Assembly: GCA_964016885.1 (NCBI GenBank)
Contig: CAXHJY010001254.1
Coordinates: 1-64,000 of the forward strand
DNA: 64,000 bases
Direction: 5' to 3'
Source of the DNA: Eledone cirrhosa
Lineage: Eukaryota
Shown here: piece after piece, positions 1,846 to 55,247 of the stretch
Layout: every line of letters begins with the position of its first letter
Numbering within the stretch: position 1 is the stretch's first letter
The notes under the pieces: model-generated
Databases searched by the model: none
What the model was told of the DNA's origin: nothing
Seen by the model: only the letters and a program-made list of their open reading frames with translations
Position numbers and translations under genes: made by a program

Positions 1846-2219
1846 TACATTTTAAATTTATATTTATATTTAAACGTTGAGTTCAATCTATGTCTGCAGC
1901 AACTGAATAAATTGTTCCTCAGATTAAGGGAATTTTTGGACTTTAATATAAAGAATATTTCTTCAATACAAAGATCACAATTTTCTGAAGAGGAATTAAA
2001 AGGAGTAGCTTATGAGATAATATTCCAATTTATCGAATATTTAATATTATCTCGTTTTAGGTCCCATAGTAGGCTAGATAGCGAAGTTGAAGATTTTTTG
2101 TTTGGATCTGTGAAAGAATTCTTATGATTATTGAAGCGAAATTTAAATTCTGTAGAGATGGAACCAACATAGTTAAATGAATTTAAATTAGTTTTAACAT
2201 TACAATTGTACACTACATT
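1846..2219 (-). pseudogene. GIY-YIG endonuclease C-terminal fragment of a Naiad-type PLE
   Basis: VVYNCNV..YVGSISTEFKFRFNNHKNSF..LSSLLWDLK..INWNII, then CDLCIEE..CCRH. Homologous to the C-termini at 16430-16906 and 51030-51480. Confidence 0.85.
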
Positions 2220-2480
2220 TTTATTTCCTCCTATCTTTATCTATCTCTTTCTTTTCTCCATACATTTCTCTCTCTCTCCGATATTTCTCCAGGTTTTCTT
2301 TCTCTTTTCTTTCTCTCTCTCTGTCTTTGTTCTTTTCTCTTTCTTTCTCTCCGTCTTTCTCTAATTGTGCTTAACACTATGACTTATTATATAAACAAAT
2401 CACTATCCAGACAGCCTCCAAAAGTAATGGTTGTATTTTAAAGGGTACGTCAAACCTATTTGTAAAACTGTTATATATTG

Positions 2481-5858: not shown

Positions 5859-5930
5859 TTTCATTTACCAGTGGTTTACCAGTGGTTTCTTAAAAGCCAC
5901 AACATTTTGCTTTCAATCATCAGAATGAAA
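5859..5930 (-). ncRNA. Type I hammerhead ribozyme (11-nt duplication at stem III)
   Basis: Reverse complement: tttcatt-CTGATGA-ttgaaagc..gcttttaa-GAAAC-cactg-GTA-(dup)-aatgaaa. Confidence 0.7.
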
Positions 5931-7361: not shown

Positions 7362-7910
7362 ATGTTATACTTTGGGAGGGTCATGTTGCCAATAAGAAAC
7401 ACACGCACCAGTTGCTTTCACTTCAATTTATTATAATAAAATTATAAATTTAGGAATTTATAAATCTCTGGTTGGTTAGTTGATTCCACAACCAGATGGT
7501 TGTTTATATATTGTCAACGTTCTTTCGTCACACATTCTGTGACCTCTTCAGTGACTGGGGATTCTTTTCTTTGTTTTTTGTGCCTCTCCTTTGTTCTGTC
7601 CTACGCCATCTCTCCTTTGTTCTGTTCTATGCCACACACAAACAAGTTGGCGTAGGACAGAACAAAGTAGAGGCACAAAAAAACAAAGAAAAGAATCCCC
7701 AGTCACTGAAGAGGTCAAGAGAATGTGTGCCGAAAGAACTTTGACAATATATAAACGACCATCTGGTTGTGGAACCAACCAACCAACCAACCAACCAGAA
7801 ATTTATAAATTCCTAAATTTATAAATTTATATATTTATTATAATAAATTGAAGTGAAAGCAACTGGTGCGTGTGTTTCTTATTGGCAACATGACCGTCCC
7901 AAAGTATAAC
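7362..7910. repeat. Long palindrome made of LTR-like 3' ends (TGTTATAC...GTATAACA)
   Basis: 7362-7608 is the reverse complement of 7648-7910. A related terminus (atgaccctccccaagtataaca) occurs at 50800-50822. Confidence 0.75.
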
Positions 7911-14137: not shown

Positions 14138-14245
<108 letters not shown>

Positions 14246-14588
14246 GTAATAATAATAAATTTGAAGACTAAAATCCAAAGAGGGCTCGATAAGAATAAAT
14301 ATATATCAAATATATAAGAACCGTAGAGCAAATATTTATTAAAATAACAGATTAAAGTTTAAGCAAAGAATCGCTGCTTTCACCCTACGACCTCTTTTAT
14401 ACCATAAACGTGGTTCTGTCTTTGCGCGTAATTGTTTTTCACCGCTCCTATTAATGACGTATTATATTCGTTTTTTCCCGTTCTTTGCCAGCGAAGGTTT
14501 CCACGAACCAAAGTATCGTCTTCCTGTCTTCCTCCGGTTGCAAAGTTTTTTGAAATATCCACTTCTGCCTTTACAGATTGACTTTGTT

Positions 14589-14639
14589 AGTTTCAGAAGA
14601 TCCCGTTAAGGGTGAAAGCAGCGATTCTTTGCTTAAACT
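14589..14639 (+). ncRNA. Hammerhead-like ribozyme with a CAGAAGA core in the Naiad-A pLTR (also 17842-17892, 18334-18383, 21517-21567 minus, 22778-22828, 53614-53664)
   Basis: agttt-CAGAAGA-tccc-gttaa-gggt-GAAAGCA..TGCT-T-aaact, with a distal stem I acagatt/aatctgt. Confidence 0.65.
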
Positions 14640-14793
14640 TTAATCTGTTATTTTAATAAATATTTGCTCTACGGTTCTTATATATTTGATATATATTTAT
14701 CCTTATCGAGCCCTCTTTTGATTTTACTCTTGAAATTTATTATTATTACTATTTGGCTCCCTCGGTTGAGCACTCTACTGACTTATATTCATC

Positions 14794-16906
14794 ATGCAGA
14801 AACAACATCTTAATATTTCTAGAAAGAACATACCCGTACCAAGCAGGAAAACATACCTAAAACTCCTGATACAGAAAACAGGCGCGTTCATTAAAAGGTT
14901 GCGTTGGCGTGCCTTTTATTTCGATAATCCGCGAAAAGCAGACAACAAACAGGATAAATTTGGATTTAAAACCTATACTAAACCCCGTGTAACCCAGCAT
15001 TGCTACCCTTCGAAAATGATGTCTTGGAACTCATTCGGAGTATCAAATTACGGAATAGGAGCAATTCCTTCCAGCAAGACCTGAAGAATATAATTCGTTG
15101 TATTAAGGATTCTAATGCCGTGCACGTCCATTCCGACAAAACTGGCAACCTATATCAAGTGGAGTGCAGTACTTACCATCAACTACTACATAATGCTGTA
15201 ACTAAGGATTATCGTAAAACTAATCGGTGCGTCATCAATGAAATCAACGGTTCTGGGTTTAAAATGACATCTGATCTCAACATCCTGGACCGGACCGAAC
15301 CTCTGGACCCTATTTCTCCCCACTTTACCCTGAAGGATCACAAATCCAATTTTCCGAACAACCCCTCTATTCGGCTTATTAACCCTACGAAGTCCGATTT
15401 AGGTAGACTTAGTAAAACGATTCTTGATAGAATTATAGCTGAAATTAGAAGTTTGGCCCCTCTTGCACTGTGGAACAACTCTTTCGCGGTGATTGATTGG
15501 TTCAACGGCATATGTAACAAGGAACATTGCCGTTTTATCCAATTCGACATCAACAATTACTACTCCTCCATCACTTTACCACTTTTCCTTAGAGCTATCA
15601 ATTTCGCTAAAACACTCACAGTGGTTAAGGATTTCGAAGTTGATGTCATCCTCAATGCCCGAAAGTCGGTGATTAATTTCGACGACTCTATTTGGATTAA
15701 AAAATCCAATAGTACCGCATTCGACGTGAGTATGGGCGCCAGTGATTCTGCGGAGGTTACTGATCTTATCGGCCTTTTCTTTCTTTTCTCTATCAAGGAC
15801 GAATTCCCCAACGCGGACGGTGGTTTGTACCGTGACGATGGTCTTTTGACCATGACTAAGTGCGGACCTCGTGCTTGCGACAGGTTCAGAAAAGAACTCA
15901 CAGCCTTCTTTAAAGACTTCAACCTCTCTATACAGGTTGAGGCCAACCTCTCGGTCGTTAATTACCTCGACGTTACCCTCAATTTATTGAATGGGTTGTA
16001 TTACCCGTATAGAAAGCCGAATGATACGCTTAATTACATAAGTAAGCATTCCAATCATCCTGCCAGCATAACCAAGAACCTGGTAAGAAACGTTTCGTTG
16101 AGGCTTTCCCGTCTTTCCACCAACGAGCGTTCCACTTATTACAATGAAGCTCTTGCTCGAAGTGGATTTGTCGATAAGGTAGCATATACAGAGTACGAAA
16201 ATAGACCTAGAAGAAATAGATCCCGTCGCATTTGTTGGTATAACCCACCATATAATATGGAGGTGGCCACACCATTAGCTAAGATCTTTCTTTCCCTTAT
16301 TACGAAGCATTTTCCCCTACACATAAATATAGTAAAATTTTTAATAGAAATACTATTAAAATTTCTTACTCTACGACTCCTAACCTTGCACATAACGCCA
16401 CAGCTTCAAATTTAGCTAAACTACCTAGCCGTAGGAACGCGTGCAACCCTGTAGTTAGTACTAACTGTAATTGTAGGAATCGGGTTGATTGCCCCCTATC
16501 CGGGAAATGCCTCTCTAGCAACATTGTCTACAAATGTAAGGTTGTAACACCCACGTCCCGTAGAGCCTACATAGGGTTAACCGCCAATAGATTCAAGCAG
16601 CGTCTTTAATTGCATACCCATTCTTTTCGTTACCCTCTAAGAAGGAATATAGCGTCGCTTTCAGCTTATATCTGGAGTCTAAAAGACAACCACACCCAAT
16701 ATAAGTTACACTGGGAGATCCTAGCTAGGGCTAGATCGTATAACGGAAATAAAAGACCATGTGACCTCTGCGCCGCTGAGGCTCTGGAAATACTCTACGC
16801 CACAGACCACATCTTAAACAAAAAATCTGAGGCAATTTCGGCTTGTAAACATAAATTGCACAAAACTTTCCTGTATTACAGCCCCACGTTATACCCTAAC
16901 GGATAG
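14794..16906 (+). pseudogene. PLE reverse transcriptase + GIY-YIG endonuclease (frameshifts near 14990 and 16320, TAA near 16608)
   Basis: LKDHK..IRLINP, FIQFDINNYY, FDVSMGA, GLYRDDGL, NYLDVTL, CNCRNRVDCPLSGKCL..IVYKC..AYIGLT..CDLCAAE..CKH. Confidence 0.92.
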
Positions 16907-17999
16907 TGCTATCTATACGTGGATATTTTACGTCTTGATGTGGGAGCTAAGTATGTTTTGTTTATACCATTACTTATTTGCATAGGTAAGTATATATTAG
17001 CCGTATGTTTTGTGAAGGTACGTATACCTTCTCGTACGTATATTTGATTGTTTATGTTATGGCGTATATTTTTATATATTCTGGTACATATGGTTTGGCT
17101 ATGTGTATACGGGAGTTTTGCTTCTGTGTGAGTATGCAGTGTGTACGTATGTAGGGTGTGTGTATGTGTGTACTTCATGTTTTGGTTGACTTACGTATCC
17201 GAACATTCGTGTATTTACATGTAGGTATGTGTGTGCTTTTGTTATATACGTATTTATTTATTTATATACGTTTATATAATTATTTAGTTATTTGTATACA
17301 CGCATACACACACACACATATTTATATGTGCATAGTTTGGTTTACCTATGGTAAGTGTTTTGCGTATGCTTGTGTATGTACGTATTTGTTTGCGTGTATG
17401 TATTTATTTATTTCTATTACTTCTGTATTGTATTTATTTACTTTGTTCTTAACTATGTAGCGGAGATTCATTCGGTCCCCTAGTTAGAATTTTAGTCTAC
17501 GACTTCTGCTATACCATTTACGAGGTTTTGTCTTTGCGTGCTATTGTTCTCCACGATCCATATATGACGTATTATCTTCGTTTTTTTTCGTTCATTGCCA
17601 GAGAACGTCTCTATGAACCACCTAAGAGACAATTAGTCTACGACCTCTTTTATACCATAAACGTGGTTCTGTCTTTGCGCGTAATTGTTTTTCACCGCTC
17701 CTATTAATGACGTATTATATTCGTTTTTTCCCGTTCTTAGCCAGCGAACGTTACCACGAACCAAAGTATCGTCTTCCTGTCTTCCTCCGGTTGCAACGTT
17801 TTTTGAAATATCCACTTCTGCGTTTACAGATTGACTTTGTTAGTTTCAGAAGATCCCGTTAAGGGTGAAAGCAGCGATTCTTTGCTTAAACTTTAATCTG
17901 TTATTTTAATAAATATTTGCTCTACGGTTCTTATATATTTGATATATATTTATCCTTATCGAGCCCTCTTTGGATTTTAGTCTTCAAATTTATTATTAT

Positions 18000-18073
<74 letters not shown>

Positions 18074-18193
18074 CATATATATATTATATATATATATATT
18101 ATATATATATATATTATATATATATATATATTATATATATATATATTATATATATATTATATATATATTATATATATATTATATTATATTATA

Positions 18194-18408
18194 TCGGTCG
18201 TTAATTACCTCGACGTTACCCTCAATTTATTGAATGGGTTGTATTACCCGTATAGAAAGCCGAATGATACGCTTAATTACATAAGTAAGTATTCCGACCA
18301 TCCTGCCAGCATAACCAAGAACCTGGTAAGAAACGTTTCAGAAGATCCCGTTAAGGGTGAAAGCAGCGATTCTTTGCTTAAACTTTAATCTCTTATTTTA
18401 ATAAATAT
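18194..18408 (+). mobile_element. Internally deleted Naiad-A fragment (RT piece fused to pLTR end)
   Basis: 18194-18339 matches 15951-16096 and is joined through shared gtttc to the pLTR HHR. Confidence 0.85.
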
Positions 18409-18489
<81 letters not shown>

Positions 18490-18532
18490 AAATATATATA
18501 TATAACATATATAATATATATATATAATATAA

Positions 18533-20108
18533 TAGGAACGAGTAGGACCCCGACGGCTGAGCTCAAGCCGTTTCGACGGCTAATTCTGGACTAAATGAAA
18601 ATTTTTATCCTGGTATATGAATAGCCGAGCTTCTCAGGAGGTAATTCCATAAATGGTAAAAGTGATTGTCACAAGGATTGGTCAAACGTTTGTTGTTGAG
18701 ACACATAATTCTATCATCGCAATTTGTGGAAGGAAGGGGTAGCTGAACCTGCCAGTAGAAGAAAGAGGGAGAGGGAGTGGAGGAAACCCAGTCGTGCGTT
18801 GATAGTGCCAACTACAGCAGGGCAGGAGGTCAAGCAAGTATACTAGGGAGTGAGAAGGGTAGGAAGTCGAGACAATAAGTAAATCAATATGGAGTAAATA
18901 TATAGAAGAATACCAATAATGTTAAAAATATAAAAAAACAATTTCTGGTTACCATTCCCTAACGACAGTCATCAAGTCTCTCACTGGTCTGCTAAACTAT
19001 AGAAAAGTTTACTAGGTGGGACGGAATTGTAATGAGACCATTTTAAGAGTTAGTAGTAATCAACCGAGTATATCTTACGGTGACAGGTCAACAAGTAGGG
19101 GGCCAAACAACTAAAGAAACTACCACGAAATAATAATTCCGAGTCCCGAAACTAATACGAAATAATTGTTTCTACCCTAGGCACAAGACCAGCAACCACC
19201 CAGTGCAAAAAATAAACTAATACGAAATAATAATTCAGAATCCCGAAAATGAATACTAATACTATCTCCAAGGGTGCCGCTACGATACAAAAATTCTAGT
19301 GCAAACTACATAAATGCTCGTACGAAGTATATGAAAAATTTGATACAGAAAATTAATTCAGAATCCCCCACCCCCACCCTCACCCCCAAAAATAAATACT
19401 GATATACGAGAAATTAAAGCAGAGATACCACTAAGAAATGTAGAAAGCACGGAAATGGGGCAGCCATCGAATAAGAAAGCAAGTATCTGGGGTCTATCAC
19501 ATCTGCTATAAAAAGCGGAGTCAGCCAATTCTATCATAGAATAGGTGGGGGTACTGAGGCTACAAAGGACTGAGGGGCTGCCCCGGGTGGGCGAGAAAGT
19601 GAAAAGGACGACGACAAAGAAGGAGGACTGGGGTGGAAGGACTAGGAAGGGATGGGGGGAAGAAGGAAATATAGAGGAAACGATAAAAAGATATAAAAGA
19701 AGATCTTACGTCTACCTTTGCAAGCAGGGGTTACCCATTACAAAGTCGGCAAGTGGGGTGTTACAGCCCTTGTCTACTCCCACGGGTCATTATGGGGTTT
19801 GATGGCGAGGTAAGTCCTACGCAATCTGTGTTTGCATGCAGTTACCAGTTCATCTTTCTTGTTTAGGAGTTGGTCCGTCGAAAACAGCATTCGTAAAGTT
19901 TCCTCTGAGCATAAATTGCACGGACGGCGTCTTCCCTTGTAAGAGTTGGCTCTGGACAGTAAGCTCCGAGTGAGATCATGGGTAATATTGGTATCTTTAA
20001 GGTCCCAGATGTGGCCAGAAAGTGTGGTGGCGTGACGCCGGGCCGGGTTTCGGAAAGTATGTCTGTGTGGTATAGACGGGTCTTGAAGTCACATGACAAC
20101 ACAGACAT
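18533..20108 (-). mobile_element. Naiad-type PLE family B 3' fragment (GIY-YIG end 19790-20108, 3'UTR, pLTR with HHR 18547-18642)
   Basis: 19720-20095 is highly similar to 50985-51365. The pLTR is shared with 25212-25610 and 54250-55201. Confidence 0.85.
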
Positions 20109-20126
20109 ACTTATATATATTATAAA

Positions 20127-20313
20127 GGCAGTGGATTGGCAGTATCGTTAGAGGGTCGGACGCCATGCTTTGACGCATAGAGTTACGGCCCTTGCCATTC
20201 TGAGTTCAAATCCCGCCGAGGTTAACTTTGCCTTTCATCCTTACGGGGTCGATAAAATGAAGTACCAGTAATACACTGGGTAATTGCTGGCCTTGTGCCT
20301 AACGTAGAAACAA
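20127..20313 (+). mobile_element. tRNA-derived SINE (family 1)
   Basis: B box gagttcaaatccc. Same body as 5527-5704. Confidence 0.85.
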
Positions 20314-20314
20314 T

Positions 20315-21450
20315 TATATATATATATATTATATGTATATATTATATATATATATTATATATATATATTATATATATATATATTATATATATATATTATA
20401 TATATATATTATATATATATATTATATTATATATATATATATTATATATATTATATTATATATATATATATTTTATATATTATATATATATATATTATAT
20501 GTATATATTATATATATATATTATATATATATATATTATATATATATATTATATATATATATATTATATATATATATTATATATATATATTATATTATAT
20601 ATATATATATTATATATATTATATTATATATATATATATTTTATATATTATATATATATATATTATATATATATAGATTATATATATATATATTATATAT
20701 ATATAATATATATATATATATAATATATATTTATATATTTATATAATATATATATATTATATATATATATTATATATATATATTATATATATATTATATA
20801 TATATATAATATATATATATATAATATATATAATATATATATATAATATATATAATATATATATATAATATATATAATATATATATATAATATATATAAT
20901 ATATATAATATATATATAATATATATAATATATATATATATAATATATATATATATACATAAATATAATATATATAATATATATATATATAATATAATAT
21001 ATATAATATATATATATATATAATATATATATAATATATATAATATATATATATATAATATATATATATAAAATATATAAATATATATATATAATATATA
21101 TATATATATAATATGTATATATATAATATATATATATAATATATATATAATATATATATATAATATATATAATATATATATGTAATATATATATATATAT
21201 ATTATAAATATATATATAATATATATATAACATATATATATAATATATATATAATATATATATATAATATATATATAATATATATATGTAATATATATAT
21301 ATATTATAAATATATATATATAGTATATATATAATATATATATATAATATATATATATATATAATATATATATATATAATATATATATAATATATATATA
21401 ATATATATATAATATATATATAATATATATATAATATATATATATAATAT

Positions 21451-21481
<31 letters not shown>

Positions 21482-21495
21482 TACATATATATATA
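20315..21495. repeat. Long degenerate (TA)n tract
   Basis: Direct inspection. Confidence 0.95.
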
Positions 21496-22850
21496 TTTAT
21501 TAAAATAACAGATTAAAGTTTAAGCAAAGAATCGCTGCTTTCACCCTTAACGGGATCTTCTGAAACTAACAAAGTCAATCTGTAAACGCAGAACTGGATA
21601 TTTCAAAAAACGTTGCAACCGGAGGAAGACAGGGAGACGATACTTTAGTTCGTGGAAACCTTCGCTGGCAAAGAACGGGAAAAAACGAATAATACGTCAT
21701 TAATAGGAGCGGTGAAAAACAATTACGCGCAATATATATATATATATAATATATAATGTTTTGTTTATTCCTTTACTTATTTGCATAGGTAAGTATATAT
21801 TACCCGTATGTTTTGTGAAGGTATGTATACTTTCTCGTACGTATATTTGACTGTTATGGCGTATAATTTTTACATAGTCTGGTATTTAGGGTTTGGCTAT
21901 GTGTATACGGGAGTTTTGCGTCTGCGTGAGTATGCAGGTTCGTACGTATGGTGGGTGTGTGTATATGTGTACTTCTTGTTTTAGTTGACTTACGTCTCCG
22001 AACATTCGTGTATTTATATGTAGGTATGCGTGTGCGCTTGTTATATACGTATTTATTTACTTATATACGTTGATATAATTATTTATTTATTTATTTGTAC
22101 ACAAGCATACACATACACACACATATTTATATGTGCGTGGTTTTGTATACCTATGGTAAGGTTTTGCGTATGCTTGTGTATGTACGTATCTGTTTGCATG
22201 TATGTATTTATTTGTTTCTATTACTTCTGTATTGTATTTATTTACTTTGTTCTTAACTCTGTAGCGGAGATTAATTTTAGTCTACGACTTCTGCTATACC
22301 ATTTACGTGGTTTTGTCTTTGCGTGCTATTGTTCTCCACGCTCCACATATGACTTATTATCTTCGTTTTTTCGTTCATTGCCAGAGAACGTCTCTATGCA
22401 CCACCTAAGAGAACATTAGTCTACGACCTCTTTTATACCATAAACGAGGTTCTGTCTTTGCGCGTAATTGTTTTTCACCGCTCCTATTAATGACGTATTA
22501 TATTCGTTTTTTCCCGTTCTTTGCCAGCGAACGTTACCACGAACCTAAGTATCGTCTTCCTGTCTTCCTCCGGTTGCAACGTTTTTTGAAATATCCAGTT
22601 CTGCGTTTACAGAAGTGGATATTTCAAAAAACGTTGCAACCGGAGGAACACAGGAAGACGATACTTTGGTTCGTGGAAACGTTCCCTGGCAAAGAACGGG
22701 AAAAAACGAATATAATACGTCATTAATAGGAGTGTTTTTTTAAATATCTACTTCTGCGTTTACAGATTGACTTTGTTAGTTTCAGAAGATCCCGTTAAGG
22801 GTGAAAGCAGCGATTCTTTGCTTAAACTTTAATCTGTTATATTAATAAAT
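21496..22850. mobile_element. Naiad-A 3'UTR/pLTR two-armed insertion (minus arm 21496-21732; plus arm 21757-22850 with an internal inversion at about 22613-22731)
   Basis: Matches 16955-17915 and its reverse complement. Confidence 0.85.
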
Positions 22851-22914
22851 ATATATATATATATATATAAATATATATATATATAAATATAAATATATAT
22901 AAATATAAATATAT

Positions 22915-22945
<31 letters not shown>

Positions 22946-22987
22946 AATATAAATATATATAAATATAATATATATATATATATAAAT

Positions 22988-23046
<59 letters not shown>

Positions 23047-23049
23047 AAT

Positions 23050-23080
<31 letters not shown>

Positions 23081-23106
23081 AATATAAATATATATAAATA
23101 TAATAT

Positions 23107-23139
<33 letters not shown>

Positions 23140-23189
23140 AATATATATATATATAAATATATATATATAAATATATATAAATATAATAT

Positions 23190-23385
<196 letters not shown>

Positions 23386-23395
23386 TTAAATATAT

Positions 23396-23915
23396 ATACA
23401 AATTAATATAAAATAAATTTTAGTCCCATATAAACGGCTGTTATTTCTAGCGGCACGAGTAAAGGACTGGCTAAGCACTGGGACACCATGTGCGTTCTCT
23501 CAGTCCTCCTAAGTATTTTGAAGTGAAACATACCAATTTCTGGGTACCTGCAGATGAGCACAGAAATGGAATTTTCACTTATTGTTGCGAAACGGATTTG
23601 AGTTATGAAATTCAAATTTGTCCAGGTACCACGGCTATTGCCAATATGGGTTTGTTTTTATTGATTTATTGTTTTAAATCGAGACAGGCAAACTGTATTA
23701 ATTTAATTAGTATTTTTCAATCTAGCTAACTTGGTCATTTACAATACAAACACTTATATAATTGTATTAGTGTTTATCATATATTAATTTATATTAATTT
23801 GTATTTCACGGCTCAGAAATATCTCTTTCTTTGAGCTATTTAATTGTAAAAGACTGTTTGAGTTATAACTCTATATATAGTAAATATATATATATATATA
23901 TATAAATATATATAA

Positions 23916-23948
<33 letters not shown>

Positions 23949-23998
23949 AATATATATATATACATATATAAATATATATAAATATATATATATATATA

Positions 23999-24056
<58 letters not shown>

Positions 24057-24208
24057 AATATATATATATATAAATATATATAAATATATATATATATAAA
24101 TATAAATATATATAAATATAATATATATATATATATATAAATATATATATATAAATATATATATATAAATATATATAAATATAATATATATATATATATA
24201 TATATATA

Positions 24209-24264
<56 letters not shown>

Positions 24265-24636
24265 AATATATATACAAATTAATATAAAATAAATTTTAGT
24301 CCCATATAAACGGCTGTTATTTCTAGCGGCACGAGTAAAGGACTGGCTAGGCACTGGGACACCATGTGCGTTCTCTCAGTCCTCCTAAGTATTTTGAAGT
24401 GAAACATACCAATTTCTGGGTACCTGCAGATGAGCACAGAAATGGAATTTTCACTTATTGTTGCGAAACGGATTTGAGTTATGAAATTCAAATTTGTCCA
24501 GGTACCACGGCTATTGCCAATATGGGTTTGTTTTTATTGATTTATTGTTTTAAATCAAGACAGGCAAACTGTATTAATTTAATTAGTATTTTTCAATCTA
24601 GCTAACTTGGTCATTTACAATACAAACACTTATATA
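23396..24636 (+). mobile_element. Two tandem copies (period 876) of a non-coding HHR element separated by TA/TAAA satellite
   Basis: 23396-23760 is nearly identical to 24272-24636. Confidence 0.85.
23543..23630 (+). ncRNA. Hammerhead-like ribozyme with a CAGATGA core and long stem III (copy 24419-24506)
   Basis: ggtacctg-CAGATGA-gca..tgc-GAAAC-ggatttga..tcaaattt-GTC-caggtacc. Perfect 8-bp stem I. Confidence 0.75.
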
Positions 24637-24654
24637 ACACACACACACACACGC

Positions 24655-24701
<47 letters not shown>

Positions 24702-28830: not shown

Positions 28831-29425
28831 TGGGAGTTTGTGAAGTGGGGTGATAGTGGAGGGTGGTTCTGGGTGATAGCTCGAATGTTTTTTTCCAGTT
28901 CTTTTGCCAGATTCATTATGGCTAAAAAAGAGGAAGAAGTTTCCTGTTTAGGAGACTGTTGGTGACTGTGGTAGTGGTTATTTTTATGTAGGTTATGGTT
29001 TTTGTTTTTGCATTTATTTTTATTTTTATTTTCATTTGTCCGACGGGTCCCCGGGAGATGGGTAAAGGGACAATCCCGGTGTAAACATAATCTGTCTCGC
29101 ATGTGGGTATGGTGTGGCGTGCGATGGCCGGAGGCGGGGGAGTGCTCGACCGGAAGGGGTCTTTGGCCGGAAGGATGCTCGACCGGAAGGGCCAGCAGAG
29201 GGTCTCTCTCTAGTGGTGACCAGCACACGGTGTGGACGCGAGTTTTGGGCAGCTCCCGGTGTTAAGCAGTTGGACGCACGTGGAAGAGGAGTACCTGCAG
29301 TGGAATTTAGCGGCGCCTGTGAAAAGCGGTAAGTGAGATAGCTTTTTCTAACCACAAGCTATTTCGGCGACTGAAAAAAAAACAAAAAACCAAAAAAAAA
29401 CACTTGCCGCAAGACAAATCAGAAG

Positions 29426-30187
29426 ATGGCAACAAGACTACGGATGAACGAAGCTATCAGGGCATTCACCGGGGAAGGTGATGTTGTCGCTTGGCTGCGG
29501 AAGGTTCGGCTGGTCGCAAGCTTGCAGAAGATAGAGGACGTGGCCGGCCTCATGGCATTGTACCTCGAGGGCGACGCGCTGGTACTCTTCCTTGAGTTGG
29601 ACGAGCACAGCCAAAGAGATGTGCAGAAGATTGAGAGGCGTCTGATGGATGCATTCGCCGAGGGACCGTTGGCGGCTTTTGCTAAGCTGGCGAGAATCAG
29701 GTGGAATGGTGAGCGCGTCGACATTTTCGCAGCGGAAATAAGGCGGTTGGCTATGTTGGCCGGTTACCAGGCGGAATGCGAACGCACGGTGCGGTTGGCG
29801 TTCATCAATGGATTTCCGGACGACATAGCGGTGAAACTGCAGCAAGTCCCGGGTTATAAAGAGATGGAAATGCGTTCACTGGTGGAACAAGCCCGGATCA
29901 TAGCGGAAGATGCCAAAAAGAGTGTTGCGGCGATGGCAACTACGGAGGCTCAGGACACCTGGCAGCGAAATGGTGAAAGGGAGGCAACCTCGACACGCGG
30001 CCGTCCGCATGCGTTTAGGGGGCGCTGTTTTCGGTGCCAGGGCCCGCATATGGCTAGAGACTGTAGAGAGTCGAAGCCGGAGATAATTTGCTACCGGTGT
30101 AAGCGACCGGGCCACATCGCTACTAACTGCGACCAGGGAAACGATCCAAGGGGAACTACTGCGCCGGTAGTTGCCCCTTACGAGTAG
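29426..30187 (+). CDS. gag: Gag with two CCHC-type zinc knuckles
   Basis: CFRCQGPHMARDC and CYRCKRPGHIATNC. Confidence 0.9.
   Translation: MATRLRMNEAIRAFTGEGDVVAWLRKVRLVASLQKIEDVAGLMALYLEGDALVLFLELDEHSQRDVQKIERRLMDAFAEGPLAAFAKLARIRWNGERVDIFAAEIRRLAMLAGYQAECERTVRLAFINGFPDDIAVKLQQVPGYKEMEMRSLVEQARIIAEDAKKSVAAMATTEAQDTWQRNGEREATSTRGRPHAFRGRCFRCQGPHMARDCRESKPEIICYRCKRPGHIATNCDQGNDPRGTTAPVVAPYE
30136..30178 (+). promoter_or_regulatory. Programmed -1 ribosomal frameshift signal
   Basis: In-frame G GGA AAC heptamer, 6-nt spacer, hairpin aggggaactac-tgcgccg-gtagttgcccct. pol is in the -1 frame. Confidence 0.8.
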
Positions 30188-30198
30188 CGGCGCTGCCC

Positions 30199-33013
30199 GT
30201 GGTGGAAGTCTTCGTGAGGGGGAAGCCACAGCGAGCCCTCGTGGATACGGGCTGTACGACGACACTGGTGACCGCGGGGGTGGCGCAGAGGTGGGGAGGG
30301 AAGAGCAGCGTAAGGGCAGTCGACGGCAGGAAAATTGAATGCCGAGGTTGCAGCGAGATGGAAATAGCGGTACGGGGAAGGAGGATAAGGCTTTCCGCCA
30401 TCGTGGTAGACAGTGTGGTGGAAGGGATCGGCGTGGTTATGGGCATGGACGCGATTGGCCGTCTAGGGGGCGTCACGGTGAACAATGTCGGTGTGTCGTT
30501 TGGCGCCGCTGCATCGGTATGCGCTGTGAGTGCACGTCATGAGAACCAGAAGGCCCACGAGGAGGAATACCCCGCTTACACTGTACAGGACAAAGACTTC
30601 AAGGCCGTGTTTGATGGGCAGCGATGGGTTGGTGAGTGGTACTGGAAGGGAGAACCACTAACACTGGAGACCAAAGTGGGCTGCTATCAACACACATTGA
30701 AGGGAAACGCTAGGAGCGAGTTCGAGCGAGAAGTAGAGAGATGGATCGAAGAGGGCATACTGCTTCCCTGGAAGGAGGAGGTGAAGTGCGGAGTATTGCC
30801 GTTGATGGCGGTGGTGCAACCCACGAAGAGCAAGGTGAGGCCGGTGCTGGACTATCGGGAGCTGAACGAGCACGTGTCATGCCACACGGGTGGCGAGGTC
30901 ACGGATATCTGTGGGGAAACCCTGCGTGAGTGGAGACGCATGACGGGGGGTTCAGCGATCGTGGATCTAAAGTCGGCTTACTTGCAGTTGCATATAGATG
31001 AGAAGCTCTGGCGGTATCAGCTGGTCAGGTATAAGGGCCGGACATATTGCCTGACCAGGCTCGGTTTCGGGCTGAGCTCCGCACCGAAGATCATGGCGGC
31101 GGTCCTCAAGACCGCTCTGGGGAGGGCCGACAAGATAAAAAGGGCTACTAACTCCTATATTGACGACATCCTAGTGGACGAGTCGGTGGTGTCGACGGCA
31201 GAGGTCACGAGCCATTTGCGGAGGTATGGACTGACTGCGAAGCCATCAGAAGCATTGGAGGGAGGAGCCGCGCTGGGACTTAGGCTACGGCGAGACAAGA
31301 CGGGCGTTTTGGTGTTCCAGAGGGGAAACGAAGTCCCGGAACTGGGCCCAAGTATGAATAGGCGGGAGCTTTTCTCGGTGTGTGGAAAGCTGGTGGGTCA
31401 CTACCCGATCGCTGGGTGGCTCCGGACGGCATGCAGCTATGTCAAGAGACGAGCGGGAGGGGTGACTTGGAGTGACAGAGTGGGAGAGAGGACGATGGCC
31501 ATGATGCAGGAGATCGTGGGGAGGGTGAAGGCCGACGACCCAGTGCGGGGACGCTGGTACGTTCCCAAATCACAGAGCGGGCCCGTATGGTGCGATGCCA
31601 GCAGCATAGTGCTGGGTGTCACGTTGGAGATAGGAGGTGTTGAGGTCGAGGATGCAGCCTGGCTTAGAAAGAAGGACGACTGCAGCCACATCAATGTGGC
31701 CGAGCTGGACGCGGTGTTGAGAGGAGTGAACCTCGCCCTGCGGTGGGGGCTGCGCACCATCGAGATACGCACCGACTCGGCTACTGTACTCGGATGGGTA
31801 AGATCAGTGCTCACCAGTGAGAAGAGAGTGCGAACGAGAGGCACGGCGGAGATGCTGATAAAGCGCCGCCTGGGAACGTTAGGAGAGCTGGCCACCGAGT
31901 TCGACCTGAAGCTGAGAGCAGTGTTCGTGCCCTCAGAGAAAAATAGGGCGGACATCTTAACTAGAGTGAAGAAAGCCTGGATGGAAGCGCCGGAGGAGGT
32001 GGAGGATGAGATAGCTGCCGTGTGTCGGCTGACCGAGTTAGACCTGAGGGGGTTGCATGACATGCACCACATGGGGGTGGATAGGAGCCTGTTCCTAGCC
32101 AGGAGAATTGACTCGGACGTTAGCAGACACAGTGTTCGGGGGGGGGGGGGGGGTTAGAGGCTGCGTCCGATGTCAGTCCATTGATCCCGCCCCGGGTGTA
32201 CACGAAACGGGAAGCCTCCCGGTGGATCGCGACTGGAAGCGATTAGCGGTGGATGTGACGCACTACCGGCAGGGAACGTACCTCTCGATGGTCGACTGTG
32301 GACCAGGTCGAGTGGCGATATGGAGGGAGATGAAGACTGGAACGGCCGAGGAAATCGTGCGGACGTTGAGAGAGGTGTTCTTGGAGCGGGGCCCTGTGGA
32401 CGAACTGCTGATGGACAACAGCGCAGCGTTCCGCTCGGAGGCACTGAGGGAGATGCTCGATGGATGGAAGGTGGACCGTTTCTTCAGAGCGGCGCACAGG
32501 CCGAGCGGGAATGGAATCGTGGAGCGACACCACCGGACGATCAAGGCAATGGCGGAGCGGGGCCATATCTCACCAATGAAGGCAGTGTTCTGGTACAATA
32601 TGTCCCCTCGGGTTGGACAGGTCGAGGAATCGGTGCCACATAGAGCAGTATTCAAATACGAGTGGCGGCACGCGTGCACGCCACCACAACGGCCAGTGGG
32701 GAGGGAGAGTGCATTCGGGCAGGTGGGCGAAGAAGTCTGGGTTAAGCCCCCAGATGCACGTTGCACATCTCAATGGGGAAGGGGAACGGTGACGGCCGTA
32801 AATTCAAAGAACAATGTGCCCGTGGACGGGGTACCACGTCATGTCCTGGATGTAAGAAGAATCACTGTGTCGACGGACTCCGAGGAAGAGGAAACCCAAG
32901 ATGAGGTGGAAACCCAGAGCTCTGCCCCAATACTACGAAGATCGCAACGAAGTCGTAGACCACCGGCCTGGACAGCAGACTTTCATATGCAGAGGGACGA
33001 GGGGGGAAATTGA
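30199..33013 (+). CDS. pol: Pol (protease, RT, RNase H, integrase); single frame break at the G-run 32137-32153
   Basis: LVDTGC; VDLKSAY, RLGFGL, YIDDI; WCDAS, AELDAV, TDSAT; H-H..CVRC, VDVTH, MDN, GNGIVERHHRTIK. Confidence 0.9.
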
Positions 33014-33284
33014 TCCTTGAGATCAGGGGGCGTGTGGGTATGGTGTGGAGTGCGGTGGCCGGAGGCGGGGGAGTGCTCGACCGGAAGGGTGTGTGGAGTG
33101 CTCGACCGGAAGGGCCAGCAGAGGGCCTCTCTCTAGTGGTGACCAGCACACGGTGTGGACGCGAGTTTTGGGCAGCTCCCGGTGTTAAGCAGTTGGACGC
33201 ACGTGGAAGAGGAGTACCTGCAGTGGAATTTAGCGGCGCCTGTGAAAAGTGGTAAGTGAGATAGCTTTTTCTAACCACATCGCA

Positions 33285-43037: not shown

Positions 43038-43720
43038 TGCGAGAAAAATGTTACCCATACCTGTTTTAAATTTTATTATTATCACCATTTAAATTTTATT
43101 ATTACAGGATCGATAAAATGAAGTACCAGTGATGCACTGGGATCGATTTAATCGACCCCCCCCCAAAAAAAAAATTTGTTGGCCTTGTGTCTAAATCAGA
43201 AGCCATCATTATTGTTGTTAGTATTGTTACTCGGTGAAACTAAAACGAGCTTTCTCCATGCTCCACTATTTCTGTTCAATTGGTGTCTGTAGTCTTTGCT
43301 GATTGTTGTGTGTAGATCTAATCAATAAAGAGAGCAACTCCATGACAGTTCCACTTTTCTGACTGTCGACGGATGCTCCCTTCATCGAAAGATCTCATCA
43401 ATTTCTTTGTCACGTGAAACTTATGGCGGCCATCTTGAAATATAAACTGATGATAGAAATAATATCTTCATTCTTCGACATTTCCTGCGTTTTTTTTCTA
43501 TTGCAACTGATATAAGTTCTGTCGATCGATTGGTCAACGTTTTGTCAGTTATATTGGAGCATTTCTGAAACAACAACAAAATATGTAAAGAAAACATGAC
43601 ATAAATAATTATGAAGAAAAAAAACCACATTAATAAATTACCAATATCATTTTCTAGGCAAATATTGGACATAACTACTGGCATGTCTTTGTCAGACTTC
43701 AGTAGAGTATAGTAGTTTTC

Positions 43721-45832: not shown

Positions 45833-47738
45833 TACACATGACACTAATACACCTACAACTTACCAAATAAAAAACAAATTAATACCACAATGGTAGACAT
45901 CTCTTAAAAACAGGAAATTCTCCTTTTGGAAGATGATACAAAACAATAACAAAGCGGAGCTCTATGAAAAATGGATTAACTCATCCCCATTAATCATCCC
46001 CCGCAAACTACAAATTAAATACATCCCAAATGAACCAAAGACACAAAGACACCCCAGGGAAAGAATGGCACTTGATAACATAAAAACTGAAATTGAACTC
46101 CTTAAATTGAGAGCCCAAGCAAATGAAGATAGGATCAAATAAATCGATGAGGAGATTAATCTAGCAATTATCAATATAACCAAAGACACCACCCTAGAAA
46201 ATATTTCAAAATTATGGTTAGAGGACTGTAATAAGGAAGAATTAAAATCCTTTCAACACTGGGAAATAAACGAAACCTGGTTCTCTAACTATGAAACACT
46301 TTTCCAAAAAGAACACACATCCAAGAACCCCTTCATTAAAACCATAACAAGAAAACTCAATCAACACCCAAACACCACACAACAACCAACAACAACAAAA
46401 AAACAATACCTCCCCACATACCAACAAAAGAAGGCATCACCTTGCCCCTACCTCCTACATCCTCCACACAACTACCACACGGACTCCCAAGCAACAAATA
46501 TAGTAATAGAGAAACATCAGCTACAAGATAGACACAACAACTTCTCTCCCACCAGGAGAAACCATAAAACCCCCCACACTTACAACCCCCTTAACATCCC
46601 CACACAACAAACCCACAACCATCATTACTTCCAACATAGAACCCAAAATACACAACTACCACACATGTCACACAGGGCCTCACAACCACACACCAGCTAT
46701 AAGGAAACCCTAATCTACCCTCCCCCACTAACCACATCCTACTACAACACCACCAGCAGGGGACAATATAACCACACGAGACACCCTAACCACTACAACC
46801 ACCATAGCTACACACCATATAACAGCAACAACAGGACTCAATATGACCACACAAGACAACCCTACTACAACTACCACCAAGTCTACACACCCTACAACAA
46901 CAGCAGTGCTCAACACAACCACACGATACAACCCAACTTCAAGAACCACCACAACTTCACACCCTATAACCACGTCCATCAAATCTACACACCCTACAAC
47001 AACATCAGCAAGGCTCAATACAACCACACGATACAACCTAAACTCAACAACCACCACAGCTACACACCATCTTACAACAACACAATACAACTATAAGAGA
47101 CATCCAAACTTCAACAGCCATCACAACTTCCGTAATCATTTTTTAGACACAGCACACAGACACAGGAGACACAAAATGCAATAAAAATTGTCAATTTAAC
47201 TTCTAAAGAATTAACAACAGACTAAATCAACATACTCTCCAAAGGTCTAAAATTTACACCAACTCCCCAACAACCAAACTACCCCCGAAATGAAGGAAGA
47301 TATTGCAGAATTCTGTAGAAAACTAAGACTCAGCGAACAACTATACAACAAATACAATGAGGATGACTCAATAGCCAGAAATAGAAGCAACTACACCCCA
47401 CCAAAAGGCAAGAACAAATTCCTTGATCAATTCTGTGAACACATTACTTATTACCCATACCACCACCTACACAGACATAAACAAAAACCAAACCCAAGCA
47501 AAAAAGAATGGAATGGTCTTAACAGTCTAAAAGACGACAAAACCCTAACAATCAAAGAGGCAGATAAAGGGAGTGCAGTAGTCCTTATGGAGACAGATTA
47601 TTACACAACTCTAGTACTCTCAACTCTAGAAAACCAAACATATTATGAAAAGGCCCAACACTACACACAACAGAAAATAATGAGAAACCTAAAATCCCTA
47701 ACAACCCTTTACAAAGAAGGCCTTACAGACAAGGAATA
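45833..47738 (+). pseudogene. 5' part of a Penelope-like ORF (N-terminal and pre-RT region), truncated
   Basis: IVNLTSKELT..LSKGLKFTPTP..EFCRKLRL..LTIKEADKGSAVVLM..YY. Confidence 0.8.
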
Positions 47739-50308
47739 CAACAACAACAATAACGGTGAAGTAAACAACAATACGTCTAGCAATCATAACAATAATAATA
47801 ATGCTAATGATAGAAACAACAACAACCACCCTGATAACAACAATAGCAACACACACAACTATGACGATAGATATAATGACAACCCCTTAGAGAAACTATT
47901 TTTCAACCCAGCTGACAAAACATATAAGATGGGTAATATCTATCCTACGAGGTTACCCTTTAATAAAAGAGTTTGCATACCACAGCAAATAGATGACGAG
48001 ACAGAGGCACAGTTCACCATAGCTAGAAATAAGATTAGACAAGTAGTAGACAGGTATACTAAGAGACAGAGCAGACCAGAGGCCCAACAACTTGGGAGGA
48101 AACCTGTAGAAGGCTTGGTTAGCCTCAAGCAGCGCACAAGGGATGGTGAGGTAGTGTGTCTACCCACAGATAAGTCTGGTAGGATGTCAATAGATAGCAT
48201 GCCGAACTACATCGAGGCTATGCAACCCCACATCACCAACACGAGCGAAGTTGCACAACAAACACACGATGGGAGAGAGAAAATCCTCAACGCTCACATG
48301 ATGATGTGGACTGACATCCTAAAGCCAAGCAGCTGACATCCTAAAGCCAAGCAGACGCACTGCCAACAACTTCCAGGCGTCTAACAATGGCATACCACCC
48401 TTGTATGGGCTCCGCAAAGATCACAAGACAGTCGACGACCCGACAACAGGACCACCAACAAGACCCGTATGCGGAGCTAATATAGCTAGCAACTACAGGA
48501 TCTCCTACTTCCTCTCAATGGTTATATGCCCCATAATCAAGATGTCCCCAGATGTATGTGAAAGTACAGAGGACCTCCTCAGCAGAATCAGTGAGTGCAA
48601 CAAAAACAGGAGCCTATCCAACTGCATAATAGGCAGCATGTATGTGGTGTCACTGTACCCATCCATTAACATTGATTTTGTTGTGAAAAGATGTGTGGAG
48701 ATGATCATTGAGAGTGAGGTGGAGTTCTGCGACATCGACACAGACGAACTGGGCCTCCTACTTAGACTTACCTACGACACTGACTACCTAGACAGCCATG
48801 ACCTTAGATGTTTCTGCCCTAGTAGACCTATAAGAGGTAGACCCCCCACCATAACCTCAATGGCAAAAAAGACTCCCATGGGAAGGTGGATTGGGTGGAT
48901 CAAAGCTATACGGACCCCCCAAAACAATGATCAGGTAAGAAAAATGGTCGCACATGCAATAGGGGCTAGTATCAAAACTACCCTAAAGGGCCACATATTT
49001 AAGTTCAATGAGAAAATCTACACCCAAAATGAGGGAGCAGCCATCGGCGTCAGCATAGCTGGTGATGTTGCCAACCTTTTCATGGTATGGTGGGAAAGGA
49101 GACTTAAAGATCTCCTTAATGAAAGCTCCATAGACCTCATCATGTACTCTCGTTATGTAGACGATATCAATATAGTTATAAGAACACCCCCACTAGAGAG
49201 CACTAACAAGTTTGAGTTAGAACGTAGCACGATGGAAAGCATCCAGCAGATAGCTAATTCCATACACCAGAGTATAACTGTAACTATCGACTTCCCTTCC
49301 AAACACCCTAACAATAGACTACCTGTATTAGACACAGAACTCTGGATTAACACTATAGACGAGAGAGCCCAAATTCTCCACTCACACTATGCTAAACCCA
49401 TGGCCTCCAAATACCTGATACTCAAAAACTCAGCAATGTCCAGTAGTGCTAAGTTTAATATTCTGATCGCAGATTTGGTACGAGTGATGAAGAATGTGTC
49501 CAGCATGTGTGACCCAACAGAAATGGAAAGACACATCCAACACTTCATCAACCGCATGCAGTTCTCTGGCTACAACCAAAGAGACAGAATCAGAGTATAC
49601 GAAGGAGCCATGGAGAAGTATAAGACCCTCATAGAACTGGACATGAAAGGAATTTGCCCATTATACAGGAGCAAATCATGGAATAGCTTAGATAGGGCTA
49701 GACATAAGATAGGGAAGGCCACATCATGGTACGACAACCAGAGATATCAGAGTATCATGTTTGTGGACGCCACCCCTAGAGGGAAATTAGCTAACCAGTG
49801 TAGAAAGGCCTTGAGAAAGACCCACTTAAAAATAAAGGTGGTAGAAAAACCAGGAACCACCATAAAATCCCTGATCAGCAAAACCTACCCTTTTAAGAAA
49901 ACCCACTGTACCAATAGGAAATGTATCATATGTAAGGTGAACCCCCGGATAAACTGTAAAACTAGAAACGTAGTCTATAGCATAAGATGTACAGAGGGTA
50001 CTTGCAGAAACATGACAACAACATACATAGGTGAGACAGCTCGTAGCATAGGTGAAAGGATAGACCAACACTGGGGGGAACTAAAAGGACGAAAAAACGG
50101 GTCAGTACTATACGAACATGCTAGACAACATGACGGTAACATAGACAACATAGAAATTAGAATAATATCTAAACATAGGAATGACCCAGCAGATAGGCAA
50201 ATCAGAGAGGCCAGTGAAATAGAAATTAGAAGACCAAAGCTAAACAGAAAGAATGAGTGGAACAACAACAACACCCAAACAAACAACACTGACCTAAGAG
50301 AAGTATAA
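47738..50308 (+). pseudogene. Second, distinct PLE ORF: RT + Cys-rich linker + GIY-YIG; broken by a 22-bp tandem duplication (48311-48354)
   Basis: PTDKSGR, YGLRKDHK..TRPV, SLYPSI, GAAIG, YSRYVDDI, LPVLD, CxxxxCxxC..C, VVYSIRC..YIGETAR..REA..LNRKNEW. Confidence 0.92.
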
Positions 50309-50968: not shown

Positions 50969-50984
50969 AATGGGTAACCCCTTA

Positions 50985-53080
50985 GCAGGAGTTACCCATT
51001 ACAAAATCGGCAAGTGGGTTGTTATAGCCCTAGTCTACCCCCCCCCCCCCCGGGTCATTATGGGGTTTGAGGGCGAGGTAAGTCCTACGCAATCTGTGTT
51101 TACATGCAGTAACCAGTTCATCTTTCTTGTTTAGGAGTTGGTCTGTCGAAAACAGCATTTGTAAAGTTTCCTCCGAGCATAAATTGCACGGACGGCGTCC
51201 TCCCGTGTAAGAGTTGGCTCTGGACAGTAATTTCCAAGTGAGATCATAGGTAATGTTGTTATCCTTGAGGTCCCATATGTGGCCCGAAAGTGTAGTGGCG
51301 TGACGCCGGGCCGGGTTTCGGAAGGTATGTCTGTGTTGGTATAGCCAGGTCTTGAAGTCACATGCGGTTAATCCTATATAAGCTTTGTTGGAGGTGTCCA
51401 TCCTCACGTTACACTGGTAGATCTCATTACAATCTCTGCATCTGTTGTCGAGGGGGAAAATGGATCCATCAGGAGTGTTGCATCTCCTGGTCGGCTCTCC
51501 ACTGCTATTTAGGTTATTTCTTCCATAGGGGTTGAGTTTTTTGTTGTTGGAGGAGACGATGTTTTGTGCAAAGTTTGGTGTAAGAGAGTTTGATGGTATT
51601 TTTGTTAATTATGTGGTAGCGGTGTTGTAGTGGGAAGTGTTTTTCAATGAGCCTAAAGAATATTTTCCCGATAGAAGTTGTCACCTCGGCGTTGTGGGGA
51701 GGATTGAACCATGTTACATTGCGTGAGCGGCGGTGTCGCCTGCTGGTTCCGCTAATGGGAGCTGGACAGTAGGATATTTCCTCCTGGAAACCACTCCGCT
51801 TGAGGGCCTGGTTGTAATAAGGCGCATATTCATCGAATATCTGCTCATTAGCTGACAAACGGGATATGCGGAGGGAGATGTTTTTAACCAGGTTATTGGT
51901 GATGTTCCTAGGATGGTTTGACCGGCGGTGGATGTAGTGCAGGTTGTCGTTAGGTTTCCTGTATGGGTAGTACAGATCATTAGCGAGGTCGAGGGTAACG
52001 TCCAGGAAGTTTACTCGGGTCAGGGACGTTTGTAGGGTTATTTTAAATCCCCAGTCGCGGAAGAAGCTGATTAATTGTTTATGGACCCGATCTGTACTAC
52101 TAGGGTTGTACCCTTTAAGGGTAAGGAGCCCATCATCACAGTACAATCCACCGCCGAATGCAGGAAACATATCGGTGAGTTTGGCTATTAGGAAACATCC
52201 TATAAGATCTGTGACCTCAGCCGAATCCGTCGCGCCCATGCTGACGTCGAAGGGTGAGTCGGGAGCTCTTTTTATCCATTTGGAGTTGTCAAAGAGTAAG
52301 ACTGTCTTCCTGGCGTGGAGGATGATGTTTCTTTCCTGGTCGGTGATGGGCGCAAGTGTTTCGGCGAAGTCCAAGGCAGCCGTAAGTAGCGGTAAGGTGA
52401 TTGAAGCATAGTAACTCTCTATGTCAAACTGGTGTCTCGTTTTTCCTCCATATTGCTGAACCAAGAGATTACTTCTTGGGTGTTGACCCATAGGCTAAGT
52501 CGGGCGTGTTGCTTAACTTTTGGTATCACGCGGTCTAGGATTTTTTTGCTGGTTCTCCCTATGTCGGACTTCGTTGGGTTTATGAGCCTGATAGAAGGTT
52601 TGCGGTCGAAATCGGATTTGTGGTCCTTCAGTGTGAAGTAGGGTGTCCATGGGTCTAGGCGACCCCGAGGCTGGAGGTAATTTGTTGTCCATCTCGATTT
52701 ATGTCCTCGATGCATGAGTGGTTAGCCTTTTTATAGGTGGAGTTTAGGCTGCTCCTGATCAGTGTGTGGTATCTGTCGGGGTTGACAAAGTAGAGGTTAC
52801 CAGTTTTATCCGAGTGCACCATGAAGTCGTTGGTGTTATCATACTCTGTTAAGTTGCTACGGAGTTTTTGTAGGAAACTGTTGTGTCTGGGTTTGAATTT
52901 AATGTTCTTGACCAGTTGGAAAAGGTCATTCTCGAAGGGTAAGAGCATAGGGTTTGGAAGGGGAGATTTGTAGGTAATAAATCCAAATCTCTCCTTGGTA
53001 CCGAAGTCCTGATTGTCGCAATATCTGTCGTAGAAAAAAGTCCTCCATCTAAGTCTTTTCGCAAATAGATCAATTTTTTG
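50985..53080 (-). pseudogene. Naiad-type PLE family B ORF (RT + GIY-YIG), frameshifted
   Basis: HSDKTGNLY, LKDHK..IRLINP, QFDIESYY, FDVSMGA, GLYCDDGL, NFLDVTL, AYIGLT, CNLCSEE, CKH. Confidence 0.92.
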
Positions 53081-53082
53081 CT

Positions 53083-53776
53083 TAACACATATTTATATGT
53101 GCGTGGTTTTGTATACCTATGGTAAGTGTTTTCGCGTATGCTTGTGTATGTACGTTTTTGTATGCGTGTATGTATTTATTTAATTTCTATTATTTCTGTA
53201 TTGTATGTATTTACTTTGTTCTTAACTCTGACGCGGAGATTCATTTGGTCTCCTAGTTGGAATTTTAGTCTACGACTTCTGCTATACCATTTACGTGGTT
53301 TTGTCTTTGCGTGCAATTGTTCTCCACGCTCCACATATGTCGTATTATCTTCGTTTTTTTCGTTCATTGCCAGAGAACGTCTCTATGAACCACCTAAGAG
53401 AACATTAGTCTACGACCTCACTTATACCATAAACGTGGTTCTGTCTTTGCGCGTAATTGTTTTTCACCGCTCCTATTAATGACGTATTATATTCGTTTTT
53501 TCCCGTTCTTTGCAAGGGAACGTTTCCACAAACCAAAGTATCGTCTTCCTGTCTTCCTCCGGTTGCAACGTTTTTTGAAATATCCACTTCTGCGTTTACA
53601 GATTGACTTTGTTAGTTTCAGAAGATCCCGTTAAGGGTGAAAGCAGCGATTCTTTGCTTAAACTTTAATCTTTTATTTTAATAAATATTTGCTCTACGGT
53701 TCTTATATATTTGATATATATTTATCCTTATCGAGCCCTCTTTGGATTTTAGTCTTCAAATTTATTATTATTACTA
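53083..53776 (+). mobile_element. Naiad-A 3'UTR/pLTR joined head-to-head to the family B element
   Basis: Matches about 17313-18003. Confidence 0.88.
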
Positions 53777-55201: not shown

Positions 55202-55247
55202 ATATATATATAACAGATATAATATGCATATATGTATGTGTATATAT

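Follow-up and report, generated by a model that had tools for sequence, protein, structure and literature searches.

The uridine at core position 4 (U4; hammerhead positions are numbered by standard usage) is treated as invariant in hammerhead ribozymes, and saturation mutagenesis is reported to have turned up nothing that rescues the CUGA turn. A 64,000-nt stretch of the Eledone cirrhosa genome (contig CAXHJY010001254.1, positions 1 to 64,000, hereafter the window) raises the question of whether a hammerhead with adenosine at this position (A4) can be the settled state of a mobile element family and whether such a motif still cleaves. An original prediction made from the sequence placed a CAGAAGA-core hammerhead in the pseudo-LTR (pLTR) of an abundant, recently mobile Penelope-like element (PLE) family with A4 as its family state, and our analysis supports this. 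We consider it somewhat probable, at roughly 0.55, that the motif is a terminal-repeat hammerhead of a Hydra-clade PLE, with predicted slow but functional self-cleavage that would process the element RNA.

The motif, its copies, and the element that carries it

The motif was called from sequence, structure scan, fold, and model match. Its parts, its copies, and the surrounding element are as follows.

14573..14648, + strand: type I hammerhead motif, A4 variant (copy 1, C3 at 14594, in the upstream pLTR)
14573-14581/14640-14648: distal stem I (9 bp), with a 7-nt bulge at 14582-14588
14589-14593/14635-14639: proximal stem I (5 bp)
14594-14600: core CAGAAGA, A4 at 14595
14601-14613: U10.1-U11.1, 3-bp stem II, and loop GUUAA
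14614-14617: GAAA; stem III at 14617-14633 (5 bp); U17 at 14634
17826..17901, + strand: copy 2, C3 at 17847, in the downstream pLTR, 3253 nt from copy 1
18334-18393, + strand: copy 3, C3 at 18339, inside the chimeric piece
18194..18408, + strand: chimeric piece, a reverse transcriptase (RT) fragment (15951-16096) joined to copy 3 at GTTTC microhomology
21508..21583, - strand: copy 4, C3 at 21562, in a 5′-truncated 3′ end of the element
22762..22837, + strand: copy 5, C3 at 22783, behind an inverted rearrangement
53598..53673, + strand: copy 6, C3 at 53619, one mismatch in the distal stem
14230..14386, - strand: inverted truncated copy of the element 3′ end, beginning inside the motif (14609 equivalent), beside (TA)n
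14385..14758, + strand: upstream pLTR, 97.8% identical to the downstream pLTR over 368 nt
14794..16906, + strand: Hydra-clade ORF, RT followed by a C-terminal GIY-YIG endonuclease
16907..18019, + strand: long 3′ UTR and downstream pLTR, ending in (TA)n

All six predicted copies were recovered with A4, and the stretch of 50 nt running from GTTT in stem I through AAACT has the same sequence in 6/6, so the fixed core stands. The type I consensus U4 is not matched and the remaining core positions are: C3, G5, A6, G8, A9, G12-A14, and the A15.1-U16.1 pair (A14617-U14633) are canonical, and the NUH site is CUU, the triplet that had been predicted, placing the predicted cut at 14634/14635 in copy 1 and at 17887/17888 in copy 2. 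A three-way junction with open stem I can form, with stems of 5+9, 3, and 5 bp, as a fold other than that of minimum energy. The motif is a hammerhead variant that lies outside consensus membership. Of the span first proposed, 14574..14648, the end is retained, whereas the distal stem begins at 14573 and can reach 9 bp. The fragment at 18334 has indeed lost the distal stem, its copy (C3 at 18339) keeping a 4-bp stem I. The proposal of an identical core in otherwise diverged copies was right about the identity and overstated the divergence, the copies being 93-99% identical overall. They are also nonindependent, those at 14594 and 17847 belonging to a single insertion as its paired pLTRs and that at 18339 being the RT-fragment chimera, and the fixation of A4 may merely reflect a single founder.

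A chance resemblance to the hammerhead is largely refuted by position and anatomy, and we regard it as highly improbable. A structure-constrained scan of the window with position 4 left free returned eight U4 motifs, eight A4 motifs in two families, and one weak U3-A8 motif, and the eight A4 motifs compare with a mean of 0.05 per window in 20 shuffles. The motif sits exactly at the pLTR position, has Hydra-type features, and occupies an element 3′ end in which neither scan nor model found another hammerhead. What speaks for chance is a folding z-score of -0.4, a low score with the model built from relatives (below), and the lack of any Rfam hammerhead match up to E = 10 in 14300-24700, where the only matches were hairpin-driven miRNA models on inverted repeats. 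Since A4 cores fail CUGANGA descriptors and Rfam likewise gave no hammerhead match, the expectation that standard searches are blind to this class was correct. The bare 7-mer CAGAAGA occurs 18 times in the window, 12 of them unrelated; its excess over 2.85 expected was dropped as evidence because whole-window shuffles mix in TA repeats.

The element had been labeled Naiad-A, a label that did not survive. The Hydra clade is defined by RWK, DKT, a C-terminal GIY-YIG, a CxCX5C linker, and CxxC/CxH, in a single ORF of ~700 aa (Craig et al. 2021, PMC8557442). The window ORF opens with the RT N terminus at 14794 and has an AYIG motif C-terminal to the RT, RLRWRAF (RWR) and HSDKTGN (DKT) in its N-terminal part, a CNCRNRVDC linker (CxCX5C), and an endonuclease with CDLCAAE..LNKKSE..CKH (CxxC and CxH around conserved E and N); RW[KR] is present in 102/120 and DKT in 108/120 homologs. 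The ORF is broken by frameshifts near 14985 and 16310 and by one in-frame stop in the endonuclease; tblastn of a 708-aa homolog (P0006) matched residues 1-692 in order, in three frames, across 14794-16855. Pfam returned no family for the ORF pieces, and the domain calls rest on homology and motifs. Both further Hydra marks, (TA)n insertion and pLTRs, are present, and the inverted truncated copy is an arrangement usual for PLEs (PMC8557442, Fig. 2 legend). The 3253-nt unit lies above the 3-kb length mark of Hydra-clade PLEs, which are "generally" shorter (PMC8557442), owing to a long 3′ UTR in which ~940 nt separate stop codon and core, as against about 50-500 nt in foreign loci.

Judged by these motifs and homology, the element is a Hydra-clade PLE. 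Naiads, as described in PMC8557442, are likewise PLEs with pLTRs and a (TA)n preference, but they have an N-terminal GIY-YIG, a CxC linker, DKA, and IFD, none of which is found in the window element. Canonical hammerheads are reported there as readily detected in the Hydra clade and absent from Naiads, and since the element is Hydra-clade rather than Naiad, that statement on Naiads is unaffected. Among the matches listed for short core terms in the PMC8557442 supplement, with line-wrapped matches missed, none had the stem II and GAAA context of a hidden Naiad A4 hammerhead. A Naiad setting would have been more surprising, and it does not hold.

Relatives and a second A4 family

Ninety related loci were compared, 77 on metagenome contigs (the best 80 of 499) and 13 on genome-bin contigs. 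A scan in which pairing was compulsory and 3-8 had to be C-G or U-A found the motif at the pLTR position in 59 of them (77 matches, 59 distinct), the other 31 loci being short, decayed, or missed. Position 4 in the 59 distinct foreign motifs is U in 57, C in one, and G in one (L072), with no A4; three of the 59 (L003:136, L014:2928, and L056:2826) look like neighbors of another PLE type. U10.1-U11.1 (25/59) and U17 (8/59) are shared with the window motif. The 15.2-16.2 pair is C-G in 58/59, the remaining one being a misparse of L042, whereas the window motif has G15.2-C16.2: both sides are swapped and the pair is kept, a compensated change that points to the fold having been under selection since the families diverged. 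Among the other foreign core variants are G4 (L072:2302-2345), U3-A8 (L030:1932-1979), and C4 (L014:2928). Inspection by eye added G3-C8 cores in L020 (4045-4086) and L052 (about 2600-2640), and L027 (2166-2225) combines A4 with U6; each of the L020, L052, and L027 variants is on one contig, where family state and decay are indistinguishable.

In 30 hand-picked foreign U4 motifs, rows chosen for pairing, double changes occur in 10/12 pairs. Covariation is strong across Hydra families and is represented here by the one compensated swap; the stems do not vary inside the A4 family. A model built from the 30 motifs recovered all six window copies weakly (15 bits, E about 0.05), at ranks 6-11 of 23, with three U4 motifs of another family higher at 24 bits. 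A quick RT tree of 95 rows, which covers 85/90 loci and contains only homologs found here, without published Hydra references or an outgroup, places the element in one group (support 99) with P0001/P0002 and the second Hydra family of the window; the closest proteins reach 56% identity at best. L072, sister to L052 (96), falls elsewhere in the tree than the window element, so its G4 and the A4 arose separately. Hydra-type PLE contigs also turned up inside bacterial genome bins (L078-L090), probably as host contamination. Among viral contigs, none of 54 pattern matches proved to be a relative.

Set beside published systems, the motif is a genuine U4A form of the Hydra-clade PLE hammerhead already known, and it extends to the whole family. 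It resembles the motifs of Hydra-1_aJap and Penelope-5_HM (PMC8557442 File S2) in being a type I motif of the sense strand that lies close to the 3′ end and within the pLTR, and shares with that clade the CNGAAGA core with A7, U10.1-U11.1, a 3-4 bp stem II, a near-palindromic stem III, U17 (frequent in the published motifs), and (TA)n targets. It differs in having A4 where the motifs of File S2 all show U4, G15.2-C16.2 (CUU site) where theirs is C-G (GUH), and a longer stem III loop. The minimal hammerheads of PLEs, with the U3-A8 form known among them (Cervera and de la Pena 2014, PMC4209133), are similar in their pLTR location and predicted dimer, and U3-A8 too is a core change shared by a whole family and overlooked by the standard descriptor; however, U3-A8 is a compensated pair and U4A an uncompensated U-turn change, and the window motif possesses a distal stem I as well as a true stem III. 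Viroid U4C and Bcep176 A6C (Perreault 2011, PMC3088659; PMC7151607) are likewise single core changes, expected to be slower and kept in nature, whereas here a purine occupies position 4, is fixed in a high-copy animal retroelement, and has an activity that is predicted. No natural U4A hammerhead was found in the text passages of the literature searched, and an earlier report is possible.

The window holds a second, independent A4 family and two further Hydra families with hammerheads.

23543..23630, + strand: A4 hammerhead (CAGAUGA, GUC site, 8-bp stem I, 13-bp stem III), C3 at 23551
24419-24506, + strand: second copy of the CAGAUGA/GUC hammerhead, C3 at 24427
23390-23850 and 24270-24640, + strand: parent repeat of the CAGAUGA hammerhead, (TA)n-flanked
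54341-54436, - strand: hammerhead of the second Hydra family (U3-A8 core, long stem II, GUC site)
50984-53090, - strand: ORF of the second Hydra family, with decayed copies near 55140-55225 (+) and 18500-18610 (-)
189-2590: third Hydra family, with an endonuclease fragment at 1890-2225 (-) and a long 3′ UTR
290, - strand: hammerhead of the third Hydra family (U4, AUA site), with an inverted copy at 2489 (+)

That an unrelated family at 23543 shares A4 was confirmed by the CAGAUGA motifs at 23551 and 24427, whose repeat shows no similarity to the Hydra element apart from short AT-rich matches. In this family A4 is the sole core change and the hammerhead fold lies 3 kcal/mol above its own minimum; it is a better test RNA for U4A than the Hydra motif. 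The A4 of this family and the G4 of L072 place a purine at position 4 on other, well-formed scaffolds, and L027 has A4 with U6; these motifs speak for function. The 15.2-16.2 pair is G-C, C-G, and U-A in the window's three Hydra families.

Other repeat families carry further hammerhead motifs at 5923 (-), 7551 (-)/7706 (+), 9770 (-)/10385 (+)/11075 (-), 36435 (+), 50577 (+), and 4134/4185; that at 7706 has U4 with a CUU site, and those at 4134/4185 are inverted 3′ halves only. Another PLE at 46143-50308 (+), with RT and C-terminal GIY-YIG, DKSG, and a CxxC linker, which we take by its motifs to be Neptune-like, is followed by the degenerate hammerhead at 50577. An LTR retrotransposon-like element at 29099-33279 (+) is bounded by direct repeats of 250 nt that enclose gag, protease-RT, and integrase-like frames. 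The sole gathering-level Rfam family in the window is a mir-46/mir-281 precursor at 43315-43396 (-) (64.9 bits), a protostome family.

Variation around A4 in sequencing runs

Parts of the element were found in 20 listed sequencing runs, none of them recorded as RNA. Run X17 yielded no matching contigs, a result given no weight. In run X1, 21,660 contigs match it, and summed depth, which is not a copy number, is 0.6-3.5 million over the pLTR against 0.01-0.07 million over the ORF, a pattern that fits many 5′-truncated copies. Ends running into (TA)n lie at 14663 (148 contigs) and 14752 (50 contigs). Among 40 of the 68 variant rows, all with a frequency of 12% or more in one run or another, none falls in 14587-14634; the 40 include bulge variants at 14582 and 14586, as subfamily polymorphism at 12-27%. 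At 14635 an A>C change that breaks the first stem I pair makes up 0.2% in X1 and is seen in one contig of X12; A>T changes were absent from X9 and X12, with one unplaced in X1. Several inversion joints in X1 have one end inside the motif (14589-14612), and the window's inverted copies likewise begin inside it (14609 and 14620 equivalents).

With 14635 left out, none of the 19 pLTR variants listed for X1 falls in the 69 core and stem positions and two fall in the bulge (P = 0.016); for the 51-nt core region alone P = 0.052, and the 15 variable columns among five window copies all lie outside the 51-nt motif (P = 0.025). The 3′ flank, too, hardly varies (2 sites in 104 nt, compared with 17 in the 199 nt upstream), and because this flank is quiet as well, selection on the motif is no more than suggested. 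In run X9 (three contigs, depth 9-17) the identical motif appears under another species label; contamination or prey is possible, and it was not counted as cross-species conservation. X9 contigs that start at 14634 were rejected as evidence of cleavage, being assembly breakpoints from a branch at 14663.

The same data bear on the possibility that the ribozyme is dead or nearly so, U4A having abolished cleavage in an element that needs none, with A4 inherited from one recent master. We hold this to be a serious contender, if on balance an improbable one. The near-identity of the copies and an invariance that reaches into the 3′ flank would follow from such a founder, whereas the compensated 15.2-16.2 swap, the 12-27% polymorphisms in the bulge, with none in core or stems among those 40 of 68 rows, and the same single core change on the long, well-paired scaffold of the unrelated 23551 family argue against it. 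On the biochemical side, PLE minimal hammerheads are poor cleavers in vitro even with U4. In the type III hammerhead, single and double CUGA-turn mutants all had low activity except a C-G swap (PMC9901934), and Naiads thrive in the account of PMC8557442 without canonical hammerheads, both of which favor a dead founder.

Predicted activity and its meaning

Our preferred reading remains a slow, functional ribozyme. Transcription through the tandem pLTR-ORF-pLTR would give an RNA in which 3253 nt separate two motifs, whose near-palindromic stems III could pair with each other, as in other PLE hammerheads; the predicted stem III energies are -12.9 kcal/mol for the dimer and -3.6 kcal/mol for each hairpin. 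Cleavage after CUU at 14634/14635 and 17887/17888 would then release a unit-length RNA, and loop 2 (GUUAA) may dock on the 7-nt stem I bulge and offset the weak core. Against activity, CUU and U17 are slow cleavage sites. The hammerhead fold lies 2.1 kcal/mol above the minimum, with a pairing probability of 0.05-0.08 for proximal stem I; A4 was considered as the cause of the competing fold and rejected, an in silico A4-to-U change leaving a similar ensemble. In favor of activity, U10.1-U11.1 is described as the mismatch that is tolerated best, and the U4C variant that occurs naturally in a viroid is reported to be sufficient in vivo (PMC3088659).

Genomic copies cross the cut site and end in (TA)n, either 29 or about 118 nt beyond it, so the RNA that was reverse-transcribed must have been uncut or re-ligated there. 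A slow ribozyme would therefore be tolerated, and the absence of cleavage is equally compatible with spread; that templates must span the site anyway is a further point for the dead founder. The fold could also be kept for a noncatalytic job, such as 3′ recognition by the RT or service as a protective or promoter-linked element, with catalysis relaxed, an explanation we consider quite unlikely. The pattern across Hydra families of constant stems and changing cores (A4 in this one, U3-A8 in the second family and L030, G3-C8 in L020/L052, and G4 in L072) would suit it, as would the two 3′ ends directly behind the motif; yet most core variants keep the 3-8 pair, a catalytic need, and G5, A6, G8, and G12-A14 are intact, although a pure structure would not need them. 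Slow catalysis that processes the element RNA remains the reading we prefer.

Two A4 families within 64 kb provide short natural RNAs for testing peripheral rescue of position 4. If the motif is active, the core consensus and search descriptors would need to be wider; if it is inactive, a PLE family is able to amplify although its hammerhead is disabled, a finding relevant to the question of what purpose these ribozymes serve in PLEs. More tentatively, and with more doubt than confidence on our part, purine-4 may be a recurrent working core class of PLE hammerheads, rescued by tertiary contacts, the dimer, or a host factor. Were that true, counts of PLE ribozymes and calls of "no hammerhead" would be underestimates, and the U-turn uridine would be less essential than bench mutagenesis says.
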